From IMG/VR virus record IMGVR_UViG_2728369593_000002: a DNA stretch of 28,060 nt; one strand, given 5' to 3'. Source of the DNA: a virus (lineage: Duplodnaviria > Heunggongvirae > Uroviricota > Caudoviricetes). A program made the translations under genes and the position numbers. Positions 1,277 to 26,559 of the stretch are shown in pieces; positions within the stretch are counted from its first letter, which is position 1, and each line of letters begins with the position of its first letter. The notes under the pieces are model-generated. The model was not told where the DNA came from and did not search any database. It worked only from the letters and a program-made list of their open reading frames with translations.

Positions 1277-1399
1277 TTTCGTGTTGGCGAGTTGGCGGGA
1301 GTTAAGTAGAATTGCTGCGGGTGCTTGAGGCTATCTGCCTCAGGCATGAACACCAAAGGCAGATAGAGAAAAGCCCCAGTTAACATTACGCGTCCTGCA

Positions 1400-2560
1400 A
1401 GACGCTTAACATTAATCTGAGGCCCAATCTATGTCTCACAAATGTAGGTTAGCCTCTTACGTGCCGAAAGGCAAGGAGATGTATGGGTCCACCACATATT
1501 GCAATTTTTATTCTCTTTTAAAATATATTCCACGGGCGTCATTAGTGCGAGCGCCTTGTGGGGTCTTTTGCTGTTATACAGCACCAGATATTCCGCCAGC
1601 TTCTGGTTAAATAGCGCCAGATCTTCAAAGAGTAAAATCTCATTAAATTCAATAAACTGCTCTCTTAACGTCCGGTTAAAACGTTCACAGATAGCGTTCA
1701 TTTTTGGCGTGTAGGGATAGGTCCAGAGGTGTTTGATAGCGGCTTCCTGCAGCGTTTTGTCGAAGTTTCCCAGGAACTCTTTTCCGTTATCTGTGATTAT
1801 CTGGCTGATACCGACCGGGAACAACCGGGCTGCGCGGCTGAAGAAGTGATTGACGATATCACTGTTGAGTGACGGCACAGCCAGCGCCAGCGCGTAATTG
1901 CTGCATTCGTCGATCATGGTGATGACATAGCGACGCAGTTCGCCCATTCTGAGCTCAATGGCGTCCATCCCAATGAGCTCACCTGTCTTTGCCGGGCGGT
2001 AGTGCTTTGGCCTGCGGGGTTTGGCAGACCGCTTTTTGACAAGCAGTGCCTTCCCCCGCGATCCCAGACGCACAGGTATCATCCGCATTTTATCATGTGC
2101 GGCAGCGATCATTCTGCCGATGGTGGAAACACTCGGACAGGCCAGATAGCGCTGTTCGCACCAGGGCTTCAGGCGAACAAAAATCTGCTCTTTACCGAGG
2201 TTCGGCAGCTCTGTCCTGAGGCGTCGAATCTCTTTCAGCACATCGGGATGCCAGTGTTTTTTTCGTCGCACCAGAGGTGCCTTACTGTGCGGGATTAGCC
2301 CCTCAGGTCCTTCCTTGTTCAGTAACTGACGCCACCAGTAAAGCGTGCGGCAGGACACGCCAAAGGCTTCAGAAGCTGCAGAAATACCGTGTTTATCCCA
2401 GAAGTGCAGAGCCTTCATTCTCATTGTTGCTATATCAGCCATCACTGAAAGCCTCAACGCATAATCGGCCGTTTGGTAGTACTTAGGATAGCCAACCATC
2501 AGATGCTGCATTTGCATAGTGCAATCTCCACTTACTTATCCGGAGGCAATTGCAATATCT
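1400..2560 (-). mobile_element. IS481-family-like insertion sequence (boundaries approximate; terminal inverted repeats not identified)
   Basis: Lone minus-strand transposase gene inside an otherwise + strand phage operon. Approx. 1.1 kb unit consistent with the IS481 family. Confidence 0.45.
1429..2517 (-). CDS. DDE transposase, IS481-family-like (N-terminal HTH plus rve integrase core)
   Basis: 362 aa with IITDNGKEF and YNSKRPHKAL motifs typical of rve-core transposases. GGAG Shine-Dalgarno upstream of the ATG on the minus strand. True start could be an internal Met (MADIATM...). Confidence 0.8.
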   Translation of the reverse strand: MQMQHLMVGYPKYYQTADYALRLSVMADIATMRMKALHFWDKHGISAASEAFGVSCRTLYWWRQLLNKEGPEGLIPHSKAPLVRRKKHWHPDVLKEIRRLRTELPNLGKEQIFVRLKPWCEQRYLACPSVSTIGRMIAAAHDKMRMIPVRLGSRGKALLVKKRSAKPRRPKHYRPAKTGELIGMDAIELRMGELRRYVITMIDECSNYALALAVPSLNSDIVNHFFSRAARLFPVGISQIITDNGKEFLGNFDKTLQEAAIKHLWTYPYTPKMNAICERFNRTLREQFIEFNEILLFEDLALFNQKLAEYLVLYNSKRPHKALALMTPVEYILKENKNCNMWWTHTSPCLSARKRLTYICET

Positions 2561-3903: not shown

Positions 3904-4193
3904 TGGTGGATTTACGTAAAGCGGCAAAAGGTCAGATGTGTACAGTCAGAATTCCTGGCTACTGCAATCACAATCCCGAAACGTCCGTGCTGGCGCATTA
4001 CAGGCTGGCGGGGACGTGTGGAACAGCGACAAAACCACACGATATGCAGGCAGCGATTGCCTGCAGCTCATGCCACGATTTAATCGACGGGCGGGTAAAA
4101 ACCAGCGATTACACCAAAGAAGAATTGCGCCTGATGCATGCAGAAGGTGTTTTTCGCACACAAGAAATCTGGAGAAAGGAAGGTTATTTATGA
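3903..4193 (+). CDS. ybcO: YbcO-like (DUF1364) putative nuclease, Cys-rich
   Basis: 96 aa with VRIPGYCNHNPETSVLAH...CGTATKP...IACSSCHD, matching the YbcO family of DLP12-type prophages. Start overlaps the upstream stop. Confidence 0.75.
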   Translation: MVDLRKAAKGQMCTVRIPGYCNHNPETSVLAHYRLAGTCGTATKPHDMQAAIACSSCHDLIDGRVKTSDYTKEELRLMHAEGVFRTQEIWRKEGYL

Positions 4194-4744
4194 TTTACCC
4201 AACAAATACAGGCAAAAGCGGGGAACACCTTCGTCTCACCACGCTGGAAAGTGTCTGGATTCAGGGAAAACTGCGCATGTGGGGGCGCTGGTCGTATATT
4301 GGCGGCGGTAAGACGGGAAATATGTTCAACCAGTTGCTGACCTCTAAAAAGCTGACAAAAACGGCAATTAACGAGGCGCTCCGGAGGATGAAAAAAGCAG
4401 GTCTGGACAAACCTGAGCTTGAGGCTTTTTTGCGGGATATGATCAACGGCAAGCAAAAAAGCTGGCTGGTGCATTGTACTGATGCAGAGGCGTTATGCAT
4501 TGATCGGGTGATTAGTGAAGTGCTGGCAGAACACCCAGGATTGATTTGTATCCTCCGGCAACGATATGAAGGGAGGGGGATGACTAAGCGCAAAATGGCT
4601 GAATTGCTGAATGATTCACACCCTGAGTGGTGTTACGCCACGTGCCGTAATCGCATAGATGCGTGGTTGAAAATGGCAGAGTTTATGCTCTATCTGCCGA
4701 TGCGTGATGCATTCTCTTCCGGGGATCTAAAAACCGTCTGTTGA
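4190..4744 (+). CDS. late-gene antiterminator Q-like protein
   Basis: 184 aa from ATG 4190 (ATGA overlap with ybcO stop). A pR'-like promoter and short terminator follow immediately, upstream of the lysis cassette. The listed 3938 start is rejected because it overlaps ybcO. Confidence 0.6.
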   Translation: MIYPTNTGKSGEHLRLTTLESVWIQGKLRMWGRWSYIGGGKTGNMFNQLLTSKKLTKTAINEALRRMKKAGLDKPELEAFLRDMINGKQKSWLVHCTDAEALCIDRVISEVLAEHPGLICILRQRYEGRGMTKRKMAELLNDSHPEWCYATCRNRIDAWLKMAEFMLYLPMRDAFSSGDLKTVC

Positions 4745-4770
4745 CTCAATCTGTTATCCGGGGCTATATT
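4741..4770 (+). promoter_or_regulatory. pR'-like late promoter: -35 TTGACT (4741-4746), 18-bp spacer, -10 TATATT (4765-4770)
   Basis: Sigma-70 consensus-like hexamers abutting the Q stop codon, the position of pR'/qut in lambdoid phages. Confidence 0.5.
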
Positions 4771-4831
4771 CCTCACGCGTCAGCAAAATCTGGCGTCGGG
4801 ATTGGCGTCCTGGATAGAGACCGCGACAGAT

Positions 4832-4857
4832 ACACGCCGCGAGCGTGTTTTTTATTG
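4832..4857 (+). terminator. tR'-like intrinsic terminator about 60 nt downstream of the pR'-like promoter
   Basis: ACACGC-CGCGA-GCGTGT hairpin followed by TTTTTTATT. Confidence 0.5.
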
Positions 4858-5014
4858 TCGTATGCACGCGCACATCTGAATTATGGTGGGCTGTGTGGGG
4901 GCGGAGAGATCCGCGCCGGTCGGTTTCCCGGTTACGCCAACCCTGCACAGTTCACCACCAGATGATTGGCGTCGTCGGTGGTGAGTTATTAAGAAACCAC
5001 CAGAGGGCGTCATT

Positions 5015-5527
5015 ATGACAACTCAAATTTCTGTTGAAACTCTCTCCCCGATCACCCATAACCAGATTCCTGTTATTACCACCGAACTTTTGGCGCAGCT
5101 TTACGGCACTGAGCCGGTGCGCATTCGCCAGAATCATCATGAGAACAAAGTACGCTTCGTTGAAGGGAAACACTTTTTCAAAGTTGTTGGTAATGACCTT
5201 AAAGAATTGCGGGTAGCTTTAAACTACTCACAAAATTTGCGGGTTACTTTAAGTAACTCACAAAATTTGCAACCATCTTTAAGAGGGTTACAAATTTCCC
5301 CGAAAGCCCGCTCCCTCATCCTCTGGACAGAACGCGGAGCAGCCCGTCATGCCAAAATGCTCGAAACCGATCAGGCGTGGGATGTGTTCGAAAAAGCTGG
5401 AAGACTGCTATTTCAGACAAAAAGGATCCGTCAGCGCCAGCTTCATGCCAGAAAAAGTTTACGACACGCGAGTTCTCTGTTATCAGCGAGGCGGTGTCAC
5501 TGTTTCCACAATTCAGTTGCGGGATGA
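5015..5527 (+). CDS. ORF6N/KilA-N-like DNA-binding domain protein (antirepressor-like moron); the C-terminus probably continues in ORF 5349..5630 after a frame break
   Basis: N-terminal region (ITTELLAQLYGTEPVRIRQNHHENKVRFVEGKHFFKV ... LILWTERGAARHAKMLE) resembles the ORF6N domain. The last 35 residues of this frame are Arg-rich and look out of frame. Confidence 0.55.
   Translation: MTTQISVETLSPITHNQIPVITTELLAQLYGTEPVRIRQNHHENKVRFVEGKHFFKVVGNDLKELRVALNYSQNLRVTLSNSQNLQPSLRGLQISPKARSLILWTERGAARHAKMLETDQAWDVFEKAGRLLFQTKRIRQRQLHARKSLRHASSLLSARRCHCFHNSVAG
5205..5294 (+). repeat. three tandem, progressively degenerate copies of a 30-bp unit inside the ORF6N gene
   Basis: aattgcgggtagctttaaactactcacaaa / atttgcgggttactttaagtaactcacaaa / atttgcaaccatctttaagagggttacaaa; encodes LRVALNYSQN-LRVTLSNSQN-LQPSLRGLQI. 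Confidence 0.55.
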
Positions 5528-6465: not shown

Positions 6466-6942
6466 ATGCAGACACTTAATTCCCAGCGTAAAGCTTTCCT
6501 TGATATGGTGGCATGGTCAGAAGGAACAGATAACGGACGGCAGAAAACCAGAAATCACGGTTATGATGTTATTGTCGGTGGCGAACTGTTCACTGATTAC
6601 TCCGATCACCCCCGCAAACTTGTCACGCTAAATCCGAAACTCAAATCAACAGCCGCCGGACGTTACCAGCTTCTTTCACGCTGGTGGGATGCCTACCGCA
6701 AGCAACTTGGTCTGAAAGATTTTTCTCCAGAAAGCCAGGATGCTGTAGCGCTGCAGCAGATTAAAGAGCGTGGCGCTTTACCGATGATTGACCGCGGCGA
6801 TATTCGTCAGGCAATCGACCGTTGCAGCAATATCTGGGCTTCGTTGCCGGGCGCTGGTTACGGTCAGTATGAACATAGAATCGGTGACCTGATTGCCCGA
6901 TTTAAAGAAGCTGGTGGGGGGGTAAATGAAGCTGAGATATAA
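6466..6942 (+). CDS. R: endolysin, lambda R-type lytic transglycosylase
   Basis: 158 aa; NSQRKAFLDMVAWSEGTDNGRQKTRNHGYDVIVGGELFTDYSDHPRKLVTLNPKLKST...RGDIRQAIDRCSNIWASLPGAGYGQ is near-identical to lambda R as recalled. Confidence 0.9.
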   Translation: MQTLNSQRKAFLDMVAWSEGTDNGRQKTRNHGYDVIVGGELFTDYSDHPRKLVTLNPKLKSTAAGRYQLLSRWWDAYRKQLGLKDFSPESQDAVALQQIKERGALPMIDRGDIRQAIDRCSNIWASLPGAGYGQYEHRIGDLIARFKEAGGGVNEAEI

Positions 6943-18999: not shown

Positions 19000-20958
19000 G
19001 TGGATGATGCAGGAGCGAAAAAGTTCGGTTCTGTCCTCGCCGGTACAACTGCAAATGTCATCAAAATGGGGCTGGCTGTTGAAGGAGCTGCGCTGTCCGT
19101 GGTGGCCTTCACGGCTAAGATCGCCTCTGGTCTGGATAATCTTTACTGGGCGTCACAGCGCACCGGCGCGACAGTCCAGGGAATTCAGTCTATTGGCTAT
19201 GCGGTTTCGCAGGTTGGCGGCAGCGTGGACGCTGCGCGATCTTCTCTGGAAAGCCTCTCCCGGTTTATTCGTAACAATCCCGGTGCAGAAGGCTTTCTGA
19301 ATCGCCTGGGCGTACAGACCCGTGATGCCAGCGGTAACATGCGTGACATGGCCGCTATCTTTACGGGCGTTGGACAGAAACTCAGCAGCATGCCGTATTA
19401 CCGGGCTAACCAGTATGCGCAGATGCTGGGCATTGACGAAAATACCCTGATGGCTATGCGTCGCGGAGTGGGGCAGTTCAGCGCTCAGTATTCAGAAATG
19501 GTGAAAGCGATCGGATTTAATGCCGATCAGGCTGCCTTATCGTCAAACCGGTTTATGACCTCGCTGAAATCGCTCGGTGAAATGGCCGGGATGGCGCGGG
19601 ACAAAATCGGATCGAATCTTGCGGACGGACTGGCGGGGCAGATTGATAACCTGCGCAAAAAGATAATTGAAAATTTTCCCAAAATTGAAGTCACCATCAC
19701 AAAGGTCATAAAGGGGATCCTCTGGCTGGGTGAGATAGTCGGGCGGGTAGCATTTCGGATAGTCGATGGTGTCGGAGATATCATCGAGTGGTGGGGGAAA
19801 CTGGATGCCGAAACGAAAACCCTGATAGAGGTTATCGGCGGTCTGGTTGTCGCCATGCGGATACTTAACTCTACTTTCTGGATGTCACCTATAGGGCTGA
19901 TTACCGGTCTGATCGTGGCTCTCGGTCTCTTGTGGGAAGACTACAAAACATGGAAAGAAGGCGGTAACAGTCTTATCGACTGGGAAAAATGGCAACCGGC
20001 AATAGATAAAGCGAAGGATGCGATCACCTGGCTTCGTGATCACCTTCTGGAACTAAAAGATGGTGTTGGCGGCTGGCAAAATGCACTGGAAATCCTCGGT
20101 ACATTCATCGCGGGTGTCTGGGTATCCAGGGTTCTGGGGGCTTTCGGAAAAATATCAGGTTTACCGGTCCCACCCTGGCTTAAATTGTGGGCGCTTTACG
20201 CGGGCTATATTGTTAGTGACAGAGAAAATATTGCCGATAGCGCAAAATCTTCACTGAGGTATACGAAGCGAATTATCGGCGACACGCTGGCTGCTATTGG
20301 TATAAAAACAGATATCGGACGCAGGGATGTCAGTGAGGTCCGTGAATGGCCTGCGTGGATGGACTGGTTGCACGGGGGACCCGGTAAAGTTATCCGGCAG
20401 GGACAGAGTAACGGTGTAGTGCATGGCTCCAACGTCCAGCCCGACATCCCCGGCGGCGGCACTCTTGCTGATCGCAACAATAACCCCGGGAACATTCGCC
20501 CGGTGAGCGGTAAAGGGTTCCGGTTTTTCGAATCAGCGCTTGAGGGCTGGGAGGCGATGAAAAACCAGCTCATGCGTTACTTTACCGGGAAAACAACCGG
20601 ACGGGCATTACAGACTATTCAGGATATTGTCAGTACCTGGGCCCCGGCAGGTGATAACAACGATCCGAAAAAGTATGCACAGGATGTTGCGAAATGGATG
20701 GGAGTATCACCGAATGCAATATTGAATCTTACAGATCCCCGGACTATGGGAGCATTGATGCAGTCGATGGCGCGCAAAGAAGGTTATTCAAACTGGAACA
20801 GCCCGCTGGCGTATCAGGCCGCCGCTGGCAGCCTTAACCAGCAGACTGTTATAAATGTTCATGGAGTTAACAACCCTCAGGAGGCGGCTAATCTGATTGC
20901 TGACAAGCAGGGGGCTGTAAATGCCAGGGCGGTACAGCAATTGAAAGGGCCTGCGTGA
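19000..20958 (+). CDS. tail tape measure protein; true start may be ATG 18951 with a frame break near 18981
   Basis: 652 aa, helical, with a hydrophobic central segment, after the chaperone pair. The listed GTG at 19000 lacks a Shine-Dalgarno, whereas ATG 18951 has GGAGAGAGG upstream. Confidence 0.8.
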   Translation: MDDAGAKKFGSVLAGTTANVIKMGLAVEGAALSVVAFTAKIASGLDNLYWASQRTGATVQGIQSIGYAVSQVGGSVDAARSSLESLSRFIRNNPGAEGFLNRLGVQTRDASGNMRDMAAIFTGVGQKLSSMPYYRANQYAQMLGIDENTLMAMRRGVGQFSAQYSEMVKAIGFNADQAALSSNRFMTSLKSLGEMAGMARDKIGSNLADGLAGQIDNLRKKIIENFPKIEVTITKVIKGILWLGEIVGRVAFRIVDGVGDIIEWWGKLDAETKTLIEVIGGLVVAMRILNSTFWMSPIGLITGLIVALGLLWEDYKTWKEGGNSLIDWEKWQPAIDKAKDAITWLRDHLLELKDGVGGWQNALEILGTFIAGVWVSRVLGAFGKISGLPVPPWLKLWALYAGYIVSDRENIADSAKSSLRYTKRIIGDTLAAIGIKTDIGRRDVSEVREWPAWMDWLHGGPGKVIRQGQSNGVVHGSNVQPDIPGGGTLADRNNNPGNIRPVSGKGFRFFESALEGWEAMKNQLMRYFTGKTTGRALQTIQDIVSTWAPAGDNNDPKKYAQDVAKWMGVSPNAILNLTDPRTMGALMQSMARKEGYSNWNSPLAYQAAAGSLNQQTVINVHGVNNPQEAANLIADKQGAVNARAVQQLKGPA

Positions 20959-21608
20959 TGGACTTTTTATCTGTTTTACTGCAGCAGCGAACCCGCTCAA
21001 TAGGAATAATTATTCCTGATGTGGTTATTACCGAAAAGCACACTGACGCCCTGGAAATTACGGAACATCCGGTTGAACAGCCCACGAATGCTGGTGCCAG
21101 TGGTGAGGACGCTGGTTACATATCAGAACACGCATTCAGGCGCCCTTCTGAGGTTGTGATGGAAACCGGTTTTTCCGGAGGCGGATCGCTGCTTGATTTT
21201 GCCAGTAACCTGACTGCTACCAGTTTACTGGGGCTGAGCCCGAAAGAACTGTATCAGGAACTGCTTAACCTGCAGCGGAATCGTATTCCTTTCGATGTGA
21301 CAACCGGCAAGCGTATTTACAACAATATGTTGATAAAAACGCTGGAGGTCACGACCGATAAGAGTAGTGAAAATGTGCTTCTGGCGACACTTACCCTCAG
21401 GGAAGTAATTATTACCTCCACGCAGTCAGTCAGGGTTGCCCCGAAAAACAATATGACCGAGGGAGTCGGAACGTCTGCTGTGCAGAATACAGGCACCAAA
21501 ACAACGGTGCCGCCGAATAATTCCATTCTGAAATCGCTGCCACAGATGGCGCAAGAAGGTATCTCCACTGTTGATGGGTATTTGAGCAATTTATTTCTGG
21601 GAAGGTGA
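20955..21608 (+). CDS. hypothetical tail/baseplate protein
   Basis: 217 aa, start overlaps the tape measure stop. Confidence 0.45.
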   Translation: MMDFLSVLLQQRTRSIGIIIPDVVITEKHTDALEITEHPVEQPTNAGASGEDAGYISEHAFRRPSEVVMETGFSGGGSLLDFASNLTATSLLGLSPKELYQELLNLQRNRIPFDVTTGKRIYNNMLIKTLEVTTDKSSENVLLATLTLREVIITSTQSVRVAPKNNMTEGVGTSAVQNTGTKTTVPPNNSILKSLPQMAQEGISTVDGYLSNLFLGR

Positions 21609-21611
21609 TTC

Positions 21612-21914
21612 ATGAAAGCCGTAGAAATCCCACTGGTTGCTGACAATCAGACTTTTGCCACCACAATTAACGGTTCGGTTTATCACCTGTCTGTCATCTG
21701 GCGAGGTGAGTACTGGGTTCTGGATCTTGCTGACAGCAATGGCTCCGCCATTATATCAGGTATACCGATGATTACGGGGGCTGACTTGCTGGCACAGTAT
21801 CGATATATGGATCTGGGTTTTTCTCTGGTGGTGCTCTGCGATGTGGCAGGGCAGGAGAATCCGACGCAATTCGATCTTGGAACGCTCTCACACCTCTATG
21901 TTTTCACGGAGTAA
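21612..21914 (+). CDS. hypothetical baseplate-associated protein
   Basis: 100 aa, tightly packed between tail genes. Confidence 0.45.
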   Translation: MKAVEIPLVADNQTFATTINGSVYHLSVIWRGEYWVLDLADSNGSAIISGIPMITGADLLAQYRYMDLGFSLVVLCDVAGQENPTQFDLGTLSHLYVFTE

Positions 21915-21916
21915 CA

Positions 21917-22951
21917 ATGTCGAAAAACTGGATGCGTCACTTTGAATTATTGCTTGTTGATGATAAGGGCGACGGGATAAAAATTTCTGAGCTTAAAGTC
22001 ACTTTCAATATTCAGAAAATGCCTGCGACCATATTTAATGGATTCGTTGGGAATTTTAAGGTTTATAACCTGTCCCCTACCACTCAGAACCGGATTATGC
22101 AGAAGGAGTTTTCGCGTATACAGGTTATTGCCGGATACAAGGGGCAACCGGATGCAGCAGGTAATTATCCTGATGAAAACGTTGGTATGATATTCAATGG
22201 AGATATCCGTTTTACTGTCACTGGTAAAGATAATGCCACAGACAGTTGGATCATGTTGCAGTGTATTGACAGCTGGGAAGGCCACCTGAACGCAAGTGTG
22301 AAAACCACAGTGGCAGCTGGCTGGAAGTACAGCGATCTTTTCAGTCTGGGTATGAAATCATTCGAACCATATGGCATCGAATCCGGCGCAGTTCCTGACA
22401 TGCCTGAAACGGTATTTCCCCGGGGTCGCGTTGTTTATCAAAACACATCAAGGTTGATGAATCATATCGCAGGGCAGTGTAAGGCTAACTGGTGGTATGA
22501 AAATAATCTGGTAAATATTGTTCCTGAAGATAAATATATTGGTGTTGCTACGGTGTTGAATGCTAACACCGGGCTTATCGGTATGCCACAGCAGACGATG
22601 GGAGCTGGCGTAAATGTCAGATGTCTGATTAATCCAAATATTAAGCTCGGTGGGCTTATTCGTCTGGATCAGGCATCTGTATACCGTGCCTCTTTGAGTA
22701 ATGACCAGGTAGCGAAATCGCCAGCACGACTGGATGAGTCTGAAAGCGACGGTAATCTCTACGTTAACGGTCTGCCAGGCATGTCACAGCCTGCCAGCAT
22801 TAATACTGACGGTGATTACATTGTGGGCAGCATTGATTATACTGGCGACACCCGAGGGCAGGCGTGGTATATGGACCTGCTTTGCCTGGCTAAAGGTGGC
22901 AAAGAACTATTGGCAAAAGGCACTTTGGACAAAGTCGGAGATGTAGAGTGA
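21917..22951 (+). CDS. baseplate hub-like protein
   Basis: 344 aa downstream of the tape measure and upstream of the spike; role inferred from position and size. Confidence 0.45.
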   Translation: MSKNWMRHFELLLVDDKGDGIKISELKVTFNIQKMPATIFNGFVGNFKVYNLSPTTQNRIMQKEFSRIQVIAGYKGQPDAAGNYPDENVGMIFNGDIRFTVTGKDNATDSWIMLQCIDSWEGHLNASVKTTVAAGWKYSDLFSLGMKSFEPYGIESGAVPDMPETVFPRGRVVYQNTSRLMNHIAGQCKANWWYENNLVNIVPEDKYIGVATVLNANTGLIGMPQQTMGAGVNVRCLINPNIKLGGLIRLDQASVYRASLSNDQVAKSPARLDESESDGNLYVNGLPGMSQPASINTDGDYIVGSIDYTGDTRGQAWYMDLLCLAKGGKELLAKGTLDKVGDVE

Positions 22952-22973
22952 AAAAAGTATTTTTTGGTTATTC

Positions 22974-23282
22974 TTGGCCCTGCCGTTAACAGTTTCGGCG
23001 GCAACGCAGTGCGGACCATTCCGCTTTGATGCTGGTAATGATGGCCTCATGCACATCAATGGTCAAAAGCCAGAAACACAAAAAATGACCTTTTTGAAAC
23101 AAAAAGACGATTTCGATAATGTCATGATGCAATGGATGTTACCTGATCCTAATACTGGACGTTGGTTAGGTATGGACTACATCAAACGAAACAAAAAAGC
23201 GATCCTCAACGTTGAAGTTATCCGCAAAAATATGGACGACCCTCGGGAGTTCTGGACGTATGATTGCCGGAAGGTGAAGTGA
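22974..23282 (+). CDS. small secreted/periplasmic protein (moron); likely true start GTG 22948, which requires a one-base frame correction in a T6 run
   Basis: Listed ORF begins at TTG with a truncated signal peptide. GTG 22948 (GGAG Shine-Dalgarno upstream) encodes VKKVFF, and with T7 instead of T6 (22960-22965) reads MKKVFFWLFLALPLTVSAA|TQCG, a complete signal peptide. Confidence 0.4.
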   Translation: MALPLTVSAATQCGPFRFDAGNDGLMHINGQKPETQKMTFLKQKDDFDNVMMQWMLPDPNTGRWLGMDYIKRNKKAILNVEVIRKNMDDPREFWTYDCRKVK

Positions 23283-23312
23283 TCTTTACCAACACAACTG
23301 TATTAATCATTG

Positions 23313-23352
23313 CTCTCTCATCTTGAATATGCGCTAATCTGTACATGTACAG
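23313..23352 (+). promoter_or_regulatory. candidate promoter (-35 TTGAAT 23313-23318; -10 TAATCT 23335-23340) with overlapping 14-bp perfect palindrome CTGTACATGTACAG (23339-23352) as putative operator
   Basis: Sigma-70-like hexamers with 16-bp spacer; the palindrome spans the -10/+1 region immediately upstream of the antitoxin Shine-Dalgarno. Confidence 0.45.
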
Positions 23353-23362
23353 AGAGGGTGCT

Positions 23363-23776
23363 ATGAAAACCATTACTTATACACAAATGCGTTCGGATTT
23401 ATCTGCCACGCTGGAATTGTTACGCTCAGGTGAGAGTGTAACGGTAACGCAACGGGGGAAGCCTGATACTGTTATCAGTGCAAAAACCGTTGATAAGGTG
23501 GTGTCTGGAAAAGAAATTAAGCCACAAAACAAAACGATAGATGCGCATCTTGCACAGTTAATTTCATCTAATTTATCCCCACAGGTAACGGAGGGAGTCA
23601 TGAAGTTTACTAAGCAATTAGATGTCCTTCTGCAGTCTGATGAGGCGCGCCAGGCAATGATGAAGGCTGCCAATGCTGCACTTGCCCTGCAGGGCGTATC
23701 AGAGTCATTTATTAAAGCTTTGCAACATACTCAGACTAAGCATGCGGAAATTATAAAAAAACTGGAAGATAAATAA
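23363..23776 (+). CDS. Phd/YefM-family antitoxin with long C-terminal extension (137 aa)
   Basis: N-terminus MKTITYTQMRSDLSATLELLRSGESVTVTQRGKPDTVI matches the Phd/YefM fold signature. GAGGG Shine-Dalgarno upstream; stop overlaps the Doc start (TAATG). Confidence 0.7.
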   Translation: MKTITYTQMRSDLSATLELLRSGESVTVTQRGKPDTVISAKTVDKVVSGKEIKPQNKTIDAHLAQLISSNLSPQVTEGVMKFTKQLDVLLQSDEARQAMMKAANAALALQGVSESFIKALQHTQTKHAEIIKKLEDK

Positions 23777-24183
23777 TGGCTGAGATTACGTTTCTTTCGG
23801 TTGATGAGGTTATTGCGATTCAGAAAAGTACGCTGCCGAACAGCGGGCAGCCTGATATAGGTAAGCTCGAAGGTGCCCTGAACAGGGTGCATAATCTGCA
23901 CATATATGAAGGCTGTGAGGATTTATTTAAATTTGCCGCTATGTATATGGTAGCAATAGCGAAGTCTCACGCTTTTAACGATGCCAACAAGCGAACAGCT
24001 TTCCAGGCCACCAGCATTTTCTTGCTAATGAATGGCTATGAACTTAACACCTCCATGGAGTTGGTGAAGTTGACTATCTTTGCTGCTACTGGAGAAGCTG
24101 ATTGTGATAATACTGCACTGGCACTAAAACTCTTGTCAGATTATAAGAATGAGCTGCTGGCAGACACGATTACTGGATACTGA
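23776..24183 (+). CDS. doc: Doc (death-on-curing) Fic-family toxin
   Basis: 135 aa with the Doc active-site motif HAFNDANKRTA; translationally coupled to the upstream Phd-like gene. Confidence 0.85.
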   Translation: MAEITFLSVDEVIAIQKSTLPNSGQPDIGKLEGALNRVHNLHIYEGCEDLFKFAAMYMVAIAKSHAFNDANKRTAFQATSIFLLMNGYELNTSMELVKLTIFAATGEADCDNTALALKLLSDYKNELLADTITGY

Positions 24184-24215
24184 TAGCGTATCAACGGTAA
24201 ACGTAAAATGTGTAT

Positions 24216-24239
24216 AACCCGCCGTCGAGCGGGTTTTTT
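24216..24239 (+). terminator. intrinsic terminator downstream of doc
   Basis: AACCCGC-CGTCGA-GCGGGTT hairpin followed by a T6 run. Confidence 0.6.
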
Positions 24240-24254
24240 ATGTCTGGAGAAAAT

Positions 24255-25007
24255 ATGCCAGTTTCACTTTCCTCTCAACTCGGCAGTAAAGAACAGGCCG
24301 ATGTAAGACTTGCTGGTTCTGTCATGTCGGTGCTGCGTGTTTCTATGCCCGGTATCGTCCAGTCATTTGATCAGGACACGGTAACGGTAGTTGTTCAACC
24401 AGCGATTAAAGGTTATGAGCCGGACTCAAATGGAATCAACCAGTCGACGACATTACCCCTGCTGGTGGATGTGCCAGTGGTATTTCCGCGCGGCGGAGGC
24501 TGTACGTTGACTTTTCCGGTAAAAGCCGGTGATGAATGTCTGGTGATTTTTTCCGATCGTTGTATTGATTTCTGGTGGCAGAACGGCGGGATACAGGAGC
24601 CGGTCGATGACAGAATGCATGATTTATCGGATGCATTTTGTATTGTCGGTCCCCAGTCGCAGGCGAGGAAGATTAGCGGTATTAATACCAGTGCCACACA
24701 GTTGCGTAGTGACGACGGCAGCACCTATTTTGAGCTTAATCCTGATACCAGGAAAATTAAAATTGTCGCTCCGGGTGGTCTTGATGTGGTTGCCCCTCTG
24801 GCTGATTTTTCTGAGAAAGTAACCATTCATGGCCTGTTAACCTGGATGGGGGGCATGGTGGGGTCTGTGGTTTCTGGTGTGGCTTCAAAAATCACTGGTG
24901 CTGTTGAGTTCTTGGGGAGCGTGAAGGCTAACGGCAAGCCAATCGATGATACGCACACTCATGGTGGTGTTCAGCGCGGTGGAAGCAGTACCGACGGGGT
25001 AAACTGA
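24255..25007 (+). CDS. baseplate spike/assembly protein (gpV-like)
   Basis: ATG 24255 with GGAG Shine-Dalgarno; the listed 24210 start lies inside the terminator. Gly-rich C-terminus with a THTHGG motif. Confidence 0.6.
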   Translation: MPVSLSSQLGSKEQADVRLAGSVMSVLRVSMPGIVQSFDQDTVTVVVQPAIKGYEPDSNGINQSTTLPLLVDVPVVFPRGGGCTLTFPVKAGDECLVIFSDRCIDFWWQNGGIQEPVDDRMHDLSDAFCIVGPQSQARKISGINTSATQLRSDDGSTYFELNPDTRKIKIVAPGGLDVVAPLADFSEKVTIHGLLTWMGGMVGSVVSGVASKITGAVEFLGSVKANGKPIDDTHTHGGVQRGGSSTDGVN

Positions 25008-25360
25008 TGCGATACAGACGTGAAGACGCCGATGGCGATTACACCTTTGGCAGCGGTGATGACACCTGGCTGATTAACTCACCGGAGGCCGTGGCGCAGG
25101 CGGTAAAAACGCGATTCGAATTGTGGTATGGGCAATGGTTTCTCGACACCACCGAGGGGACTCCGTGGATCCAGTCCGTACTCGGTAAGCAGAAGCCTGA
25201 AACCTACAACCTGGCGATCCGTAAGCGCATCCTCGAAACGCGGGGCGTTAAATCAATCCTCTCTTTCAATACGACGGTGGATACCACGACCCGACGTGTC
25301 ATGTTTTCCGCTGAAATCGACACTCTTTATGGAATAACGACTGTTACATCGGAGGCGTAA
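25007..25360 (+). CDS. baseplate wedge protein (gpW/gp25-like)
   Basis: 117 aa between spike and J-like genes; start overlaps upstream stop. Confidence 0.5.
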   Translation: MRYRREDADGDYTFGSGDDTWLINSPEAVAQAVKTRFELWYGQWFLDTTEGTPWIQSVLGKQKPETYNLAIRKRILETRGVKSILSFNTTVDTTTRRVMFSAEIDTLYGITTVTSEA

Positions 25361-26559
25361 TGGCTCTGAACCTTGATTCTCTCGGTTTATCTGCAAAGGT
25401 AACCGCGGAGGGGATCAGTGCGCCTGATTATCAGACGATACTCAGCACCCTGATTAGCTATTTTCAGCAGATTTATGGCAGTGATGCCTACCTCGAACCG
25501 GACAGCAAAGACGGCCAGATGGTGGCTCTGATGGCGCTGGCGATTCATGATGCCAATAATATGGCGATAACTGTCTACAACTGTTTTTCACCGGCAACCG
25601 GCTATGGGGCTGCACTGACCAGTAACGTGAAAATAAATGGTATTTCACGTAAAGGCGCGACGAACTCTACGGTTGATTTGCTTCTTGCAGGAACTGCCGG
25701 AACAACCATCATTAATGGCAGCGTGAAAGACAGTAATAATGTGATATGGCGTTTGCCTGCTTCAGTAGTGGTCGGCGTGGATGGTACAGTGATGGCGACC
25801 GCAACATGTTCCGTCAGTGGTGCAGTGGCGGCGCTGGCTGGAACTATCACTGAAATTAATACGCCAACCCGTGGCTGGGTTTCGGTAACCAATCCTGCTG
25901 CAGCTACTGTGGGCACTCCGGCAGAAACTGACGCGGAGTTACGTATCCGCCAGTCGCAGAGTGTTGCGTTGCCATCAATAACCCCATTTGAAGCACTGGA
26001 TGGTGCTGTTTCTAATGTTACCGGTGTAACCCGCCACAAACTCTATGAAAACGATACTGGTTCGGAGGACGGTAACGGGTTACCGCCACACTCTGTTGCT
26101 GTAATTGTGGATGGCGGTGATGTAACGGATATTGCTCAGGCTATCAGAGGGAATAAAGGCCAGGGGACAGCCACTCACGGTACAACATCCGTTACGGTTC
26201 CGGATAAATACGGCAATCCCCATGTAATCAAATTCTCGCGTTCCAGTGATGTGCCTGTTTATGCCCGGATTAAATTAAAAGTTTTTACGGGTTATACCTC
26301 ACAGATAGGGCAGCAGATCCAGCAGGCTATTTCCGACTATATCAATAGTCTGATGATTGGTGATTCGGTCCTTTTAAGTCGCATTTACTCACCGGCGAAT
26401 CTTGGCGTGGTGAGTGGCGGGAATGCACGCTATTACGATATTCAGGAACTGACGATTGGGAAATCCCAGGGGACTTTGTCGTCATCAAACATTGATATCA
26501 GATATAACGAATCTGCGTCCTGTACCCCGGAAAATATCGTTATAACGGTGGAGTCATGA
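25360..26559 (+). CDS. baseplate J-like protein
   Basis: 399 aa in conserved gene order W-J-I upstream of the tail fibre. Confidence 0.65.
   Translation: MALNLDSLGLSAKVTAEGISAPDYQTILSTLISYFQQIYGSDAYLEPDSKDGQMVALMALAIHDANNMAITVYNCFSPATGYGAALTSNVKINGISRKGATNSTVDLLLAGTAGTTIINGSVKDSNNVIWRLPASVVVGVDGTVMATATCSVSGAVAALAGTITEINTPTRGWVSVTNPAAATVGTPAETDAELRIRQSQSVALPSITPFEALDGAVSNVTGVTRHKLYENDTGSEDGNGLPPHSVAVIVDGGDVTDIAQAIRGNKGQGTATHGTTSVTVPDKYGNPHVIKFSRSSDVPVYARIKLKVFTGYTSQIGQQIQQAISDYINSLMIGDSVLLSRIYSPANLGVVSGGNARYYDIQELTIGKSQGTLSSSNIDIRYNESASCTPENIVITVES

Follow-up and report, generated by a model that had tools for sequence, protein, structure and literature searches.

The DNA analyzed here, a stretch of 28,060 nucleotides (nt) from the Caudoviricetes record IMGVR_UViG_2728369593_000002 (the window), carries an antitoxin gene followed by a Doc toxin gene on the plus strand, in the midst of the baseplate genes of a prophage. 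The Doc ATG overlaps the antitoxin TAA by 1 nt, the two genes appear to be translationally coupled, and the pair is present in 17 of 17 related loci examined. RefSeq/PGAP already names the products, as a "type II toxin-antitoxin system Phd/YefM family antitoxin" (WP_000849713.1) and a "death-on-curing family toxin" (WP_000818127.1). We consider it likely that this cassette is an autoregulated type II toxin-antitoxin (TA) operon of the Phd-Doc type, a moron (optional cargo unit) that fills a variable slot of the baseplate operon.

That a two-gene cassette interrupts a tightly packed run of baseplate genes had been proposed earlier from the letters alone (the sequence-only reading), and the layout bears this out. 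Gaps of 80 nt on the left and 71 nt on the right set the cassette off; the tail genes on either side have intergenic distances of 0-4 nt or overlap (20955-21608, 21612-21914 and 21917-22951 on one side; 24255-25007, 25007-25360 and 25360-26559 on the other). Its G+C content is 0.42-0.44, compared with 0.47-0.55 for the flanking tail genes. An in-frame ATG at 23345 would give an antitoxin of 143 amino acids (aa), but the start at 23363 is favored because of its conserved GAGGG ribosome-binding site, and RefSeq likewise calls the 137-aa product.

Toxin and antitoxin modules

The downstream gene product is a Doc-family toxin and a clear homologue of P1 Doc. It scores 81.2 bits against TIGR01550 (DOC_P1; cut-off 38.65) and 42.2 bits against PF02661 (Fic; E = 1.5e-10, cut-off 24), and it matches phrog_577 "Doc-like toxin" (E = 2.4e-32) and P1 Doc itself (3K33, E = 1.8e-19, 40% identity over about 114 residues). 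The AlphaFold2 (AF2) model, with a predicted local distance difference test score (pLDDT) of 82, has the all-helical Fic/Doc fold, and Foldseek aligned it to 3DD7, 3KH2 and 3K33 with template modeling (TM) scores of 0.77-0.85 and root-mean-square deviations of 2.1-2.6 Å. The motif HAFNDANKR, which the sequence-only reading had recognized, occupies residues 65-73 and aligns with HIFNDANKR of P1 Doc. Residues H65, F67, D69, N71, K72 and R73 are invariant among 27 aligned subfamily members. Castro-Roa and coworkers reportedly separated, in 2013, the Doc-type loop HxFx(D/N)(A/G)NKR from the AMPylating Fic loop HxFx(D/E)GNGRxxR. By these definitions, the loop found here is of the Doc type and not of the AMPylating type. 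Both the loop definition and the EF-Tu target of Doc follow that study, which PMC10440598 cites. On the strength of the 40% identity to P1 Doc and the intact HxFxDANKR loop, the toxin would phosphorylate EF-Tu and arrest translation.

Sequence constraint on the toxin is strong. Across 12 natural pairs, the set used for all identity and substitution-rate comparisons below, Doc has a mean pairwise identity of 76% and a ratio of nonsynonymous to synonymous substitution rates (dN/dS) of 0.02-0.03. Residues 122-134 (24141-24180) form an extra C-terminal helix (LSDYKNELLADTxxGY) that P1 Doc does not have, with L120, S121 and Y123 invariant. This helix is co-conserved with the C-terminal motif of the antitoxin and may be part of a family-specific interface. 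The 135-aa Doc subfamily comprises 169 proteins at E <= 1e-10 and is far wider than the family of the 137-aa antitoxin.

The N-terminus of the antitoxin is Phd/YefM-like, as the earlier reading had held. Residues 1-38 match PF02604 (Phd/YefM) at model positions 1-39 of 74 with 31.1 bits against a cut-off of 29.8, and the score against TIGR01552 (19.0 bits) falls under the cut-off of 20.8. Despite these marginal profile scores we assign the domain to the Phd/YefM fold, because the fold match is decisive: residues 1-40, modeled at a pLDDT of about 91, superpose on the N-domain of P1 Phd (4ZLX) at 0.8 Å over 40 residues with 35% identity, and hhalign aligns the antitoxin family to P1 Phd over residues 1-47 with a probability of 93%. 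P1 Phd is also the best match of the family profile among PDB sequences (E = 5.6e-5). Residues 1-36 have a mean pairwise identity of 74% and a dN/dS of about 0.07. Its N-domain and its operator (see below) place the antitoxin in the Phd/YefM superfamily. It is no close orthologue of Phd, since its toxin-binding end consists of a different, family-specific motif. This dissimilar C-terminus limits the claim of orthology and not that of superfamily membership, since C-termini that differ between members are normal in the Phd/YefM superfamily (PMC1802561).

An alignment of 23 antitoxin sequences (A3) contains two conserved blocks, residues 1-36 and the last ~25, and the stretch between them varies in both sequence and length. 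This linker (about residues 37/39-112) has a mean pairwise identity of 25%, many indels and a dN/dS of 0.16-0.58, and is the least conserved part of the antitoxin/Doc pair. Its pLDDT is 43-67 overall; residues 45-58 are modeled as disordered and the helices within 59-110 reach only 56-67. Of the C-terminal region that the sequence-only reading had called helical, only the last ~25 aa are conserved; the helix predicted for residues 114-136 is the best-modeled part of the C-terminal half (pLDDT 77-83). No match to the protein beyond the N-domain was found in Pfam, NCBIfam, PHROGs, PADLOC, PDB sequences or Foldseek. Among partners of the same Doc subfamily the linker ranges from absent to about 95 aa, and the antitoxins measure 57 (Xenorhabdus, without the N-domain), 109 (Klebsiella), 114, 117 (Enterobacter), 128, 134-138, 146, 153 and 157 aa. 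The length of 137 aa, which had been described as twice that of canonical Phd, is correct as a number and is one point on this 57-157 aa continuum. The further suggestion that the added length supplies a functional domain is not borne out, given an identity of 25% against 73-76% elsewhere in the pair, the variation in length and the lack of any family match. We interpret the extra length as a weakly constrained, fast-evolving linker rather than a new domain.

The C-terminal motif SESFIKALQHTQTKHAEIIKKLEDK behaves differently. Every partner antitoxin of the Doc subfamily ends in F..AL..T..KHA.IIK.LEDK, with ten invariant positions (F116, A119, T123, H127, A128, I130, I131, L134, E135 and D136), and residues 113-137 have a mean pairwise identity of 73% and a dN/dS of 0.01-0.14. 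A phmmer search with the last 46 aa against 1.84 billion representative proteins returned 7 hits; the four full-length ones (128-137 aa) all belong to this antitoxin family, and the other three are short (21-58 aa). The motif is the constant partner of Doc and probably its neutralizing helix. The antitoxin as a whole would then consist of three parts, a DNA-binding domain, a hypervariable linker and a motif of ~25 aa. A linker with a separable C-terminal motif fits the published modular picture, in which a DNA-binding domain is joined to a short Doc-neutralizing element (PMC10440598, PMC1802561) and a short Phd-C element can by itself neutralize a Doc (PMC10440598). A natural 57-aa antitoxin that keeps the C-motif and has no Phd DNA-binding domain precedes an intact Doc gene in Xenorhabdus bovienii (locus L026, 3331-3504); the operator of this cassette is degenerate (CTGTACACATACAG).

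Probable operator and candidate promoter

A perfect 14-base-pair (bp) palindrome over the -10/+1 region had been noted by the sequence-only reading. Pattern search verified CTGTACATGTACAG as exact and as a single occurrence in the window, one base to the left of the position implied. About 1.7 perfect 14-bp palindromes of any sequence are expected by chance in a 28-kb window, so the existence of this one is unremarkable in itself and its meaning must come from conservation. Related cassettes were gathered by exact-protein look-ups and one genome scan (3 loci). Of 12 antitoxin-family cassettes, 11 have the palindrome 10-17 nt upstream of the start codon (Escherichia, Serratia, Pantoea, Pectobacterium, Klebsiella, Gibbsiella and Morganella); they come from at least three different prophage contexts, with unrelated flanking DNA and antitoxin identities down to 34%. 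The consensus is CTGTACATGTACAG, with the variant ATGTACATGTACAG in Morganella, and Klebsiella and Enterobacter cassettes in which the Doc subfamily has a more remote partner retain (C/T)TGTACATGTACAAG. It is missing only in Edwardsiella, the most divergent member, in which the N-domain also differs. This conservation, together with the precedent of the family, suggests that the palindrome is very probably an autoregulatory operator.

The promoter that had been proposed for the cassette is a candidate of weak extended -10 type. Diverged cassettes share TTGC(T/C) at -35, a 17-nt spacer ending in TGn and the hexamer (G/A)CTAAT, at a fixed distance to the palindrome and in upstream DNA that is otherwise unrelated. 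This conserved footprint upholds the proposal in part; measured against the consensus, the promoter is weak. The -10 hexamer ends exactly where the palindrome begins, a layout shared with the annotated P1 Pphd, in which TATAAT is followed directly by the GTAC-core operator TGTGTACACA. Coordinates of all features are given in Table 1.

Table 1. Positions of the cassette, its parts and its surroundings (window coordinates unless a locus is named; gene positions include the stop codon).
Feature	Position	Strand	Basis
Whole cargo cassette (moron): promoter/operator, antitoxin, Doc, terminator	23283..24241	+	Junction alignments, G+C
Candidate sigma-70 promoter: -35 TTGCTC 23310-23315; 17-nt spacer ending TGC; extended -10 TG 23330-23331; -10 GCTAAT 23333-23338	23310..23338	+	
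Probable operator: perfect palindrome CTGTACATGTACAG, two abutting TGTACA hexamers	23339..23352	.	Pattern search; conservation
Antitoxin gene, 137 aa	23363..23776	+	Open reading frame (ORF); RefSeq WP_000849713.1; PF02604
Antitoxin residues 1-38, Phd-type DNA-binding/dimerization domain	23363..23476	+	AF2, Foldseek, hhalign
Antitoxin residues 39-112, hypervariable, partly helical linker ("extra" length)	23477..23698	+	Identity, dN/dS, pLDDT, length variation
Antitoxin residues 113-137, conserved C-terminal motif SESFIKALQHTQTKHAEIIKKLEDK, probable Doc-neutralizing helix	23699..23773	+	Conservation
Doc toxin gene, 135 aa	23776..24183	+	ORF; TIGR01550, PF02661, P1 Doc match
Doc catalytic loop H65-A-F-N-D-A-N-K-R73	23968..23994	+	Sequence reading; alignment to HIFNDANKR of P1 Doc
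Intrinsic terminator AACCCGC-N6-GCGGGTT + T6, 14 nt before the spike gene start	24216..24241	+	Terminator scan; RNA fold
Left flank: small phage gene, STY1065/STY2022-like	22974..23282	+	ORF; phrog_3443 E = 5e-47; RefSeq name in a relative
Right flank: baseplate central spike gene	24255..25007	+	Pfam spike N-terminal domain E = 1.4e-43 and Apex motif; RefSeq "membrane-puncturing spike protein"
Alternative slot cargo loci	L003 4173-4412; L006 3006-3245; L004 2455-2910 (-); L005 2523-3682		

Cargo slot, relatives and genomic neighborhood

The terminator consists of a 7-bp G+C stem at 24216-24235 and a T6 run, with an RNA folding energy of -12.6 kcal/mol (z = -2.9 against shuffles). It had been taken for the cassette's own, and this part of the sequence-only reading does not hold: an identical hairpin, AACCCGC..GCGGGTTTTTT, precedes the spike gene in prophages that carry a DUF4282 gene. 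We assign the terminator to the slot and not to the cassette because the hairpin is common to this DUF4282-carrying version. The same hairpin lies at about 4430-4460 of locus L003 and about 6900-6925 of locus L002, and its conservation does not depend on which cargo is present. In lysogens it may serve as an insulator, so that transcripts of the moron do not extend into the tail genes.

In an alignment to the DUF4282-carrying prophage CFS3292, the sequences diverge immediately past the upstream gene's stop codon, which marks the left junction. On the right side, similarity to the DUF4282 version resumes at the conserved terminator and the spike gene. Sister E. coli prophages hold other cargos at this site: most commonly the 79-aa DUF4282 membrane protein, or else a 150-aa minus-strand product (phrog_26342) or a 243-aa and 142-aa pair (phrog_22649 and phrog_5176). 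These are candidate lysogen-benefit or defense genes. The interval between the phrog_3443 gene and the spike gene thus appears to be a recurrent cargo slot that turns over among cargo types; no earlier description of it as a hotspot was found in the literature searched.

The cassette is rare, occurring in 5 of 5,426 complete E. coli genomes. Prophages of E. coli O55:H7 DEC5A and FDAARGOS_946 match a 1,011-bp cassette region at 100% identity; a third genome reaches 99.8%, and two others 82%. Identity to DEC5A is confined to 23250-24260; outside this interval the mosaic differs, and DEC5A has another allele of the gene just upstream. For the whole window (1-28060), no complete E. coli genome exceeds 88% coverage (96.7% identity). 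The comparison indicates that the prophage is a mosaic and that the cassette either moved between backbones or was retained across them.

In addition to the two E. coli versions, this slot houses members of the TA family in Serratia sp. Ag1, Pantoea, Pectobacterium, Klebsiella and two metagenomic contigs, so that the association holds across genera down to 45-50% antitoxin identity. Other relatives lie downstream of the antiterminator Q (Serratia, Gibbsiella), at another prophage position (Klebsiella) and, in Edwardsiella, next to the portal gene of a P2-like prophage, which is the cos-adjacent P2 hotspot of PMC9122126; the positions downstream of Q and in the P2 hotspot are classic sites for morons. 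In Enterobacter mori, a 117-aa antitoxin and Doc with the palindrome kept stand at a chromosomal non-prophage site between CDP-alcohol phosphatidyltransferase and ABC-transporter genes (locus L024, 3148-3908); the module is therefore not confined to prophages. Deposited phage genomes gave no DNA match to the cassette and no tblastn match to the antitoxin, and the closest Doc in a phage record is the P1 group at 39.8%. A plasmid search returned two antitoxin hits, both distant. A plasmid copy on pC3_1 of Pantoea sp. C3 (locus L014, 6001-6174) has an antitoxin frame that stops after MKTIT, though the tblastn match spans residues 1-66, and is probably a disrupted cassette; upstream of it, a similar terminator hairpin is followed by an intact palindrome.

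Other parts of the window were also annotated. In the left-flanking phrog_3443/STY1065-like gene (22947-23282), a T-run near 22960-22966 is 1 nt shorter than in the intact 111-aa allele of CFS3292. The deficit breaks the GTG-start frame with its signal-peptide-like N-terminus and leaves a TTG-start ORF of 102 aa (22974-23282), so that the gene may be a pseudogene or may use an alternative start. A DUF1133 protein at 3938-4744 (+) has a sub-threshold Phage_antitermQ match (25.8 bits against 26). Since the slot terminator lies so close before the spike gene, late transcription must read through it, and this Q-like protein is a candidate late antiterminator for that passage. The prophage has a second TA system: a sok antisense RNA (RF01794, 114 bits) at 1319-1485 (+) marks a hok/sok type I TA locus, and an rve-family insertion sequence (IS) transposase ORF of 362 aa (1429-2517, -) abuts or overlaps it. 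The DEC5A prophage is without about 1.35 kb at hok/sok, which suggests an IS insertion beside or into this locus. The isrK small RNA (RF01394), the C4 antisense RNA (RF01695) and an a1/b1 target (RF03163) were found at 4764-4962 (+), just before an ORF6N-domain gene (5015-5527); the arrangement is reminiscent of antisense-controlled antirepressor or late-control units of the P1/P7 or Gifsy type.

Comparison with known systems, mechanism and possible roles

The closest characterized system is Phd-Doc of phage P1 (3K33, 3DD7, 3KH2, 4ZLX, 4ZM0). Both modules are phage-borne, place the antitoxin before the toxin with overlapping stop and start codons, and share the Doc fold and HxFNDANKR loop, the fold of the antitoxin N-domain, and a GTAC-core operator that begins directly after the -10 hexamer. 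They differ in that Phd has 73 aa and no counterpart to the inserted linker of about 75 aa, in that the C-motif found here does not significantly resemble residues 52-73 of Phd, the helix with which Phd binds Doc, and in the extra conserved helix of Doc. In Phd operators, GTAC-core palindromes of 8 bp are spaced 13 bp apart and overlap the promoter (PMC1802561); P1 has two of these, whereas here a single 14-bp palindrome holds TGTACA boxes 6 bp apart from center to center. P1 is a plasmid prophage, whereas the present cassette lies in the tail operon of an integrated prophage. The YefM-YoeB and Axe-Txe systems share the antitoxin N-domain fold (2A6Q, 6L8E) and an operator of paired TGTACA hexamers that overlaps the promoter, but their boxes are 12 bp apart (PMC1802561) and abut here, and the toxin here is Doc, a Fic kinase, and not the YoeB RNase. 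In PanA:Doc of C. doosanense, from the NetFlax study (PMC10440598), a DNA-binding or accessory domain is likewise combined with a short separable helical element that alone neutralizes Doc. The family described here shows the same logic by comparative data, including its natural 57-aa "C-motif only" antitoxin; its N-terminal module has the Phd fold and not Panacea, and neutralization by its C-motif is inferred.

Morons in lambdoid late operons are a known class of phage cargo. The cassette resembles these and other cargo hotspots in being an autonomous promoter-gene-terminator unit between essential late genes, with polymorphism among sister prophages of both the presence/absence and the replacement kind and with lower G+C than its neighbors, although its promoter is weak when judged by the consensus. 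The P2 cos-adjacent hotspot (PMC9122126) itself holds one relative. What sets the cassette apart from such morons is its site in a myovirus-type tail module, with the phrog_3443 gene on one side and the baseplate spike gene on the other, and the terminator, which is fixed in the slot and common to different cargos.

The following mechanism is proposed from homology and comparative evidence. In the lysogen, the weak extended -10 promoter (TTGCTC-17-TGcGCTAAT) would transcribe both genes, and the transcripts would end at the hairpin at 24216-24241 so that the tail genes stay silent. The antitoxin would dimerize, bind CTGTACATGTACAG through its Phd-fold N-domain and repress its own promoter, probably with Doc as co-repressor, as in P1. 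The C-terminal helix (residues 113-137), tethered to the DNA-binding domain by the length-variable linker, would hold Doc, the predicted EF-Tu kinase, inactive. If antitoxin synthesis stops, the labile antitoxin would decay and Doc would arrest the cell. Possible triggers are loss or deletion of the prophage, or shut-off of host transcription by a superinfecting phage; the outcome would be a stabilized prophage and/or an aborted infection by the competitor, two roles that the mechanism does not separate. During lytic growth of the prophage, late transcription would pass the slot terminator, probably by Q-type antitermination.

Several points weigh against this interpretation or parts of it. 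Toxicity, neutralization, DNA binding, the EF-Tu target and the lability of the antitoxin are all inferred. A consensus sigma-70 scan found no site with at least 9 of 12 matches upstream of the antitoxin, and the -10 hexamer has C instead of A at position 2; the case for the promoter is one of phylogenetic footprinting. Homology of the C-motif to the Phd C-terminus was not recovered by hhalign, which aligned only residues 1-47, or by the family profile, which found nothing significant for it among PDB sequences. Local alignment of Phd residues 45-73, calibrated with shuffles, gave P = 0.86 against antitoxin residues 100-137 and P = 0.18 against residues 45-99. MAFFT places the Phd C-terminus under the C-motif, which is only suggestive, and the proposed neutralization thus draws on co-conservation and not on homology or a model of the complex. 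In PADLOC-DB v2, no curated defense-system model was matched and the antitoxin had no hit; Doc gave weak hits to candidate families only (PDC-M59B, the best at E = 4.8e-6, PDC-S23 and PDC-S04). The literature searched held no paper on phage defense by a Doc system, and nothing specific on the two protein accessions. Four linker positions (P73, E77, Q85 and S92) reach at least 90% conservation in closer relatives, and the dN/dS of the linker does not rise to 1; some of the linker may therefore touch Doc as well. These positions and the dN/dS would also favor a stronger view, that residues 39-137 form an additional functional domain (sensor, second partner-binding or enzymatic) on the Phd core, as would the four helices that AF2 predicts across the region and the conserved C-terminal helix of Doc, which could pair with something. 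We regard such a domain as unlikely, because the region is unalignable beyond close relatives, can be absent from partners of the same Doc subfamily, is modeled at low confidence without any database match, and is conserved only in its last ~25 aa. Decay of the cassette into an inactive remnant without a working TA pair is more improbable still. The frameshift in the neighboring small gene and the IS element elsewhere in the prophage could point to a degenerating element, as could the weak promoter, but three complete genomes carry the two intact ORFs in identical form, the catalytic loop is preserved together with the operator, ribosome-binding site and translational coupling, and Doc and the two conserved antitoxin modules have dN/dS values of 0.02-0.07.

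If the module works as proposed, its selected role may be exclusion of other phages or stabilization of the prophage. It is quite plausible, if short of probable, that the role is abortive infection or exclusion, in which a superinfecting phage turns off host transcription or triggers loss of the antitoxin, Doc freezes translation and the invader fails. The small alternative cargos of the slot in sister prophages are in keeping with this, as are the relatives downstream of Q and in the cos-adjacent P2 hotspot, a documented reservoir of anti-phage systems (PMC9122126), the weak PADLOC candidate-family matches, and the fast evolution of the linker, which is often seen in arms-race surfaces. The slot and hotspot settings tip the balance slightly in favor of a role in defense or lysogen benefit. 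Against it, the searches described above gave no match to a curated defense model and no validated Doc-based defense system, the only characterized homologue, P1 Phd-Doc, is an addiction module, and the Enterobacter mori relative occupies a non-prophage chromosomal site. The P1 precedent speaks instead for classical addiction, in which cells that lose the prophage or its tail segment are killed or arrested, or for a purely selfish hitchhiker; we regard this as possible but somewhat doubtful. Strong purifying selection on toxin and antitoxin, even in the chromosomal non-prophage copy, agrees with it, and the persistence of the cassette in one tail slot across genera fits a module that resists deletion. 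However, the cassette is rare in E. coli, the turnover of slot cargo means that it does not prevent its own replacement, and integrated prophages are lost infrequently compared with plasmids. A more speculative extension, to which we give little credence, is that the linker (39-112) is a fast-evolving sensor or decoy surface, that proteins of invading phages bind or cleave it and so free the C-terminal helix from Doc, and that the slot is a defense hotspot of this myovirus-type prophage family. If true, the cassette would be a directly triggered abortive-infection system whose linker diversity tracks phage diversity, and the baseplate slot a previously undescribed defense hotspot.

We retain the reading of the cassette as a Phd-Doc-type TA operon in a variable cargo slot. 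It is an ordinary, already annotated kind of module, probably functional, and an experimentally uncharacterized member of the Phd-Doc kind, with variant details in its continuum of linker lengths, abutting TGTACA boxes and extra Doc helix. Its practical value is modest; both genes are already correctly named in RefSeq, and the current understanding of TA systems is unchanged. The analysis documents an Enterobacterales subfamily of Phd-Doc modules, in which the operator is clearly delimited, the antitoxin has three parts and one natural variant, of 57 aa, is "motif-only". The natural length series would be useful for testing the minimal Doc-neutralizing antitoxin and the effect of linker length on conditional co-repression, and the recurrent cargo slot with its fixed terminator, which precedes the baseplate spike gene in a widespread prophage tail module, could be mined for lysogen-benefit and defense genes.

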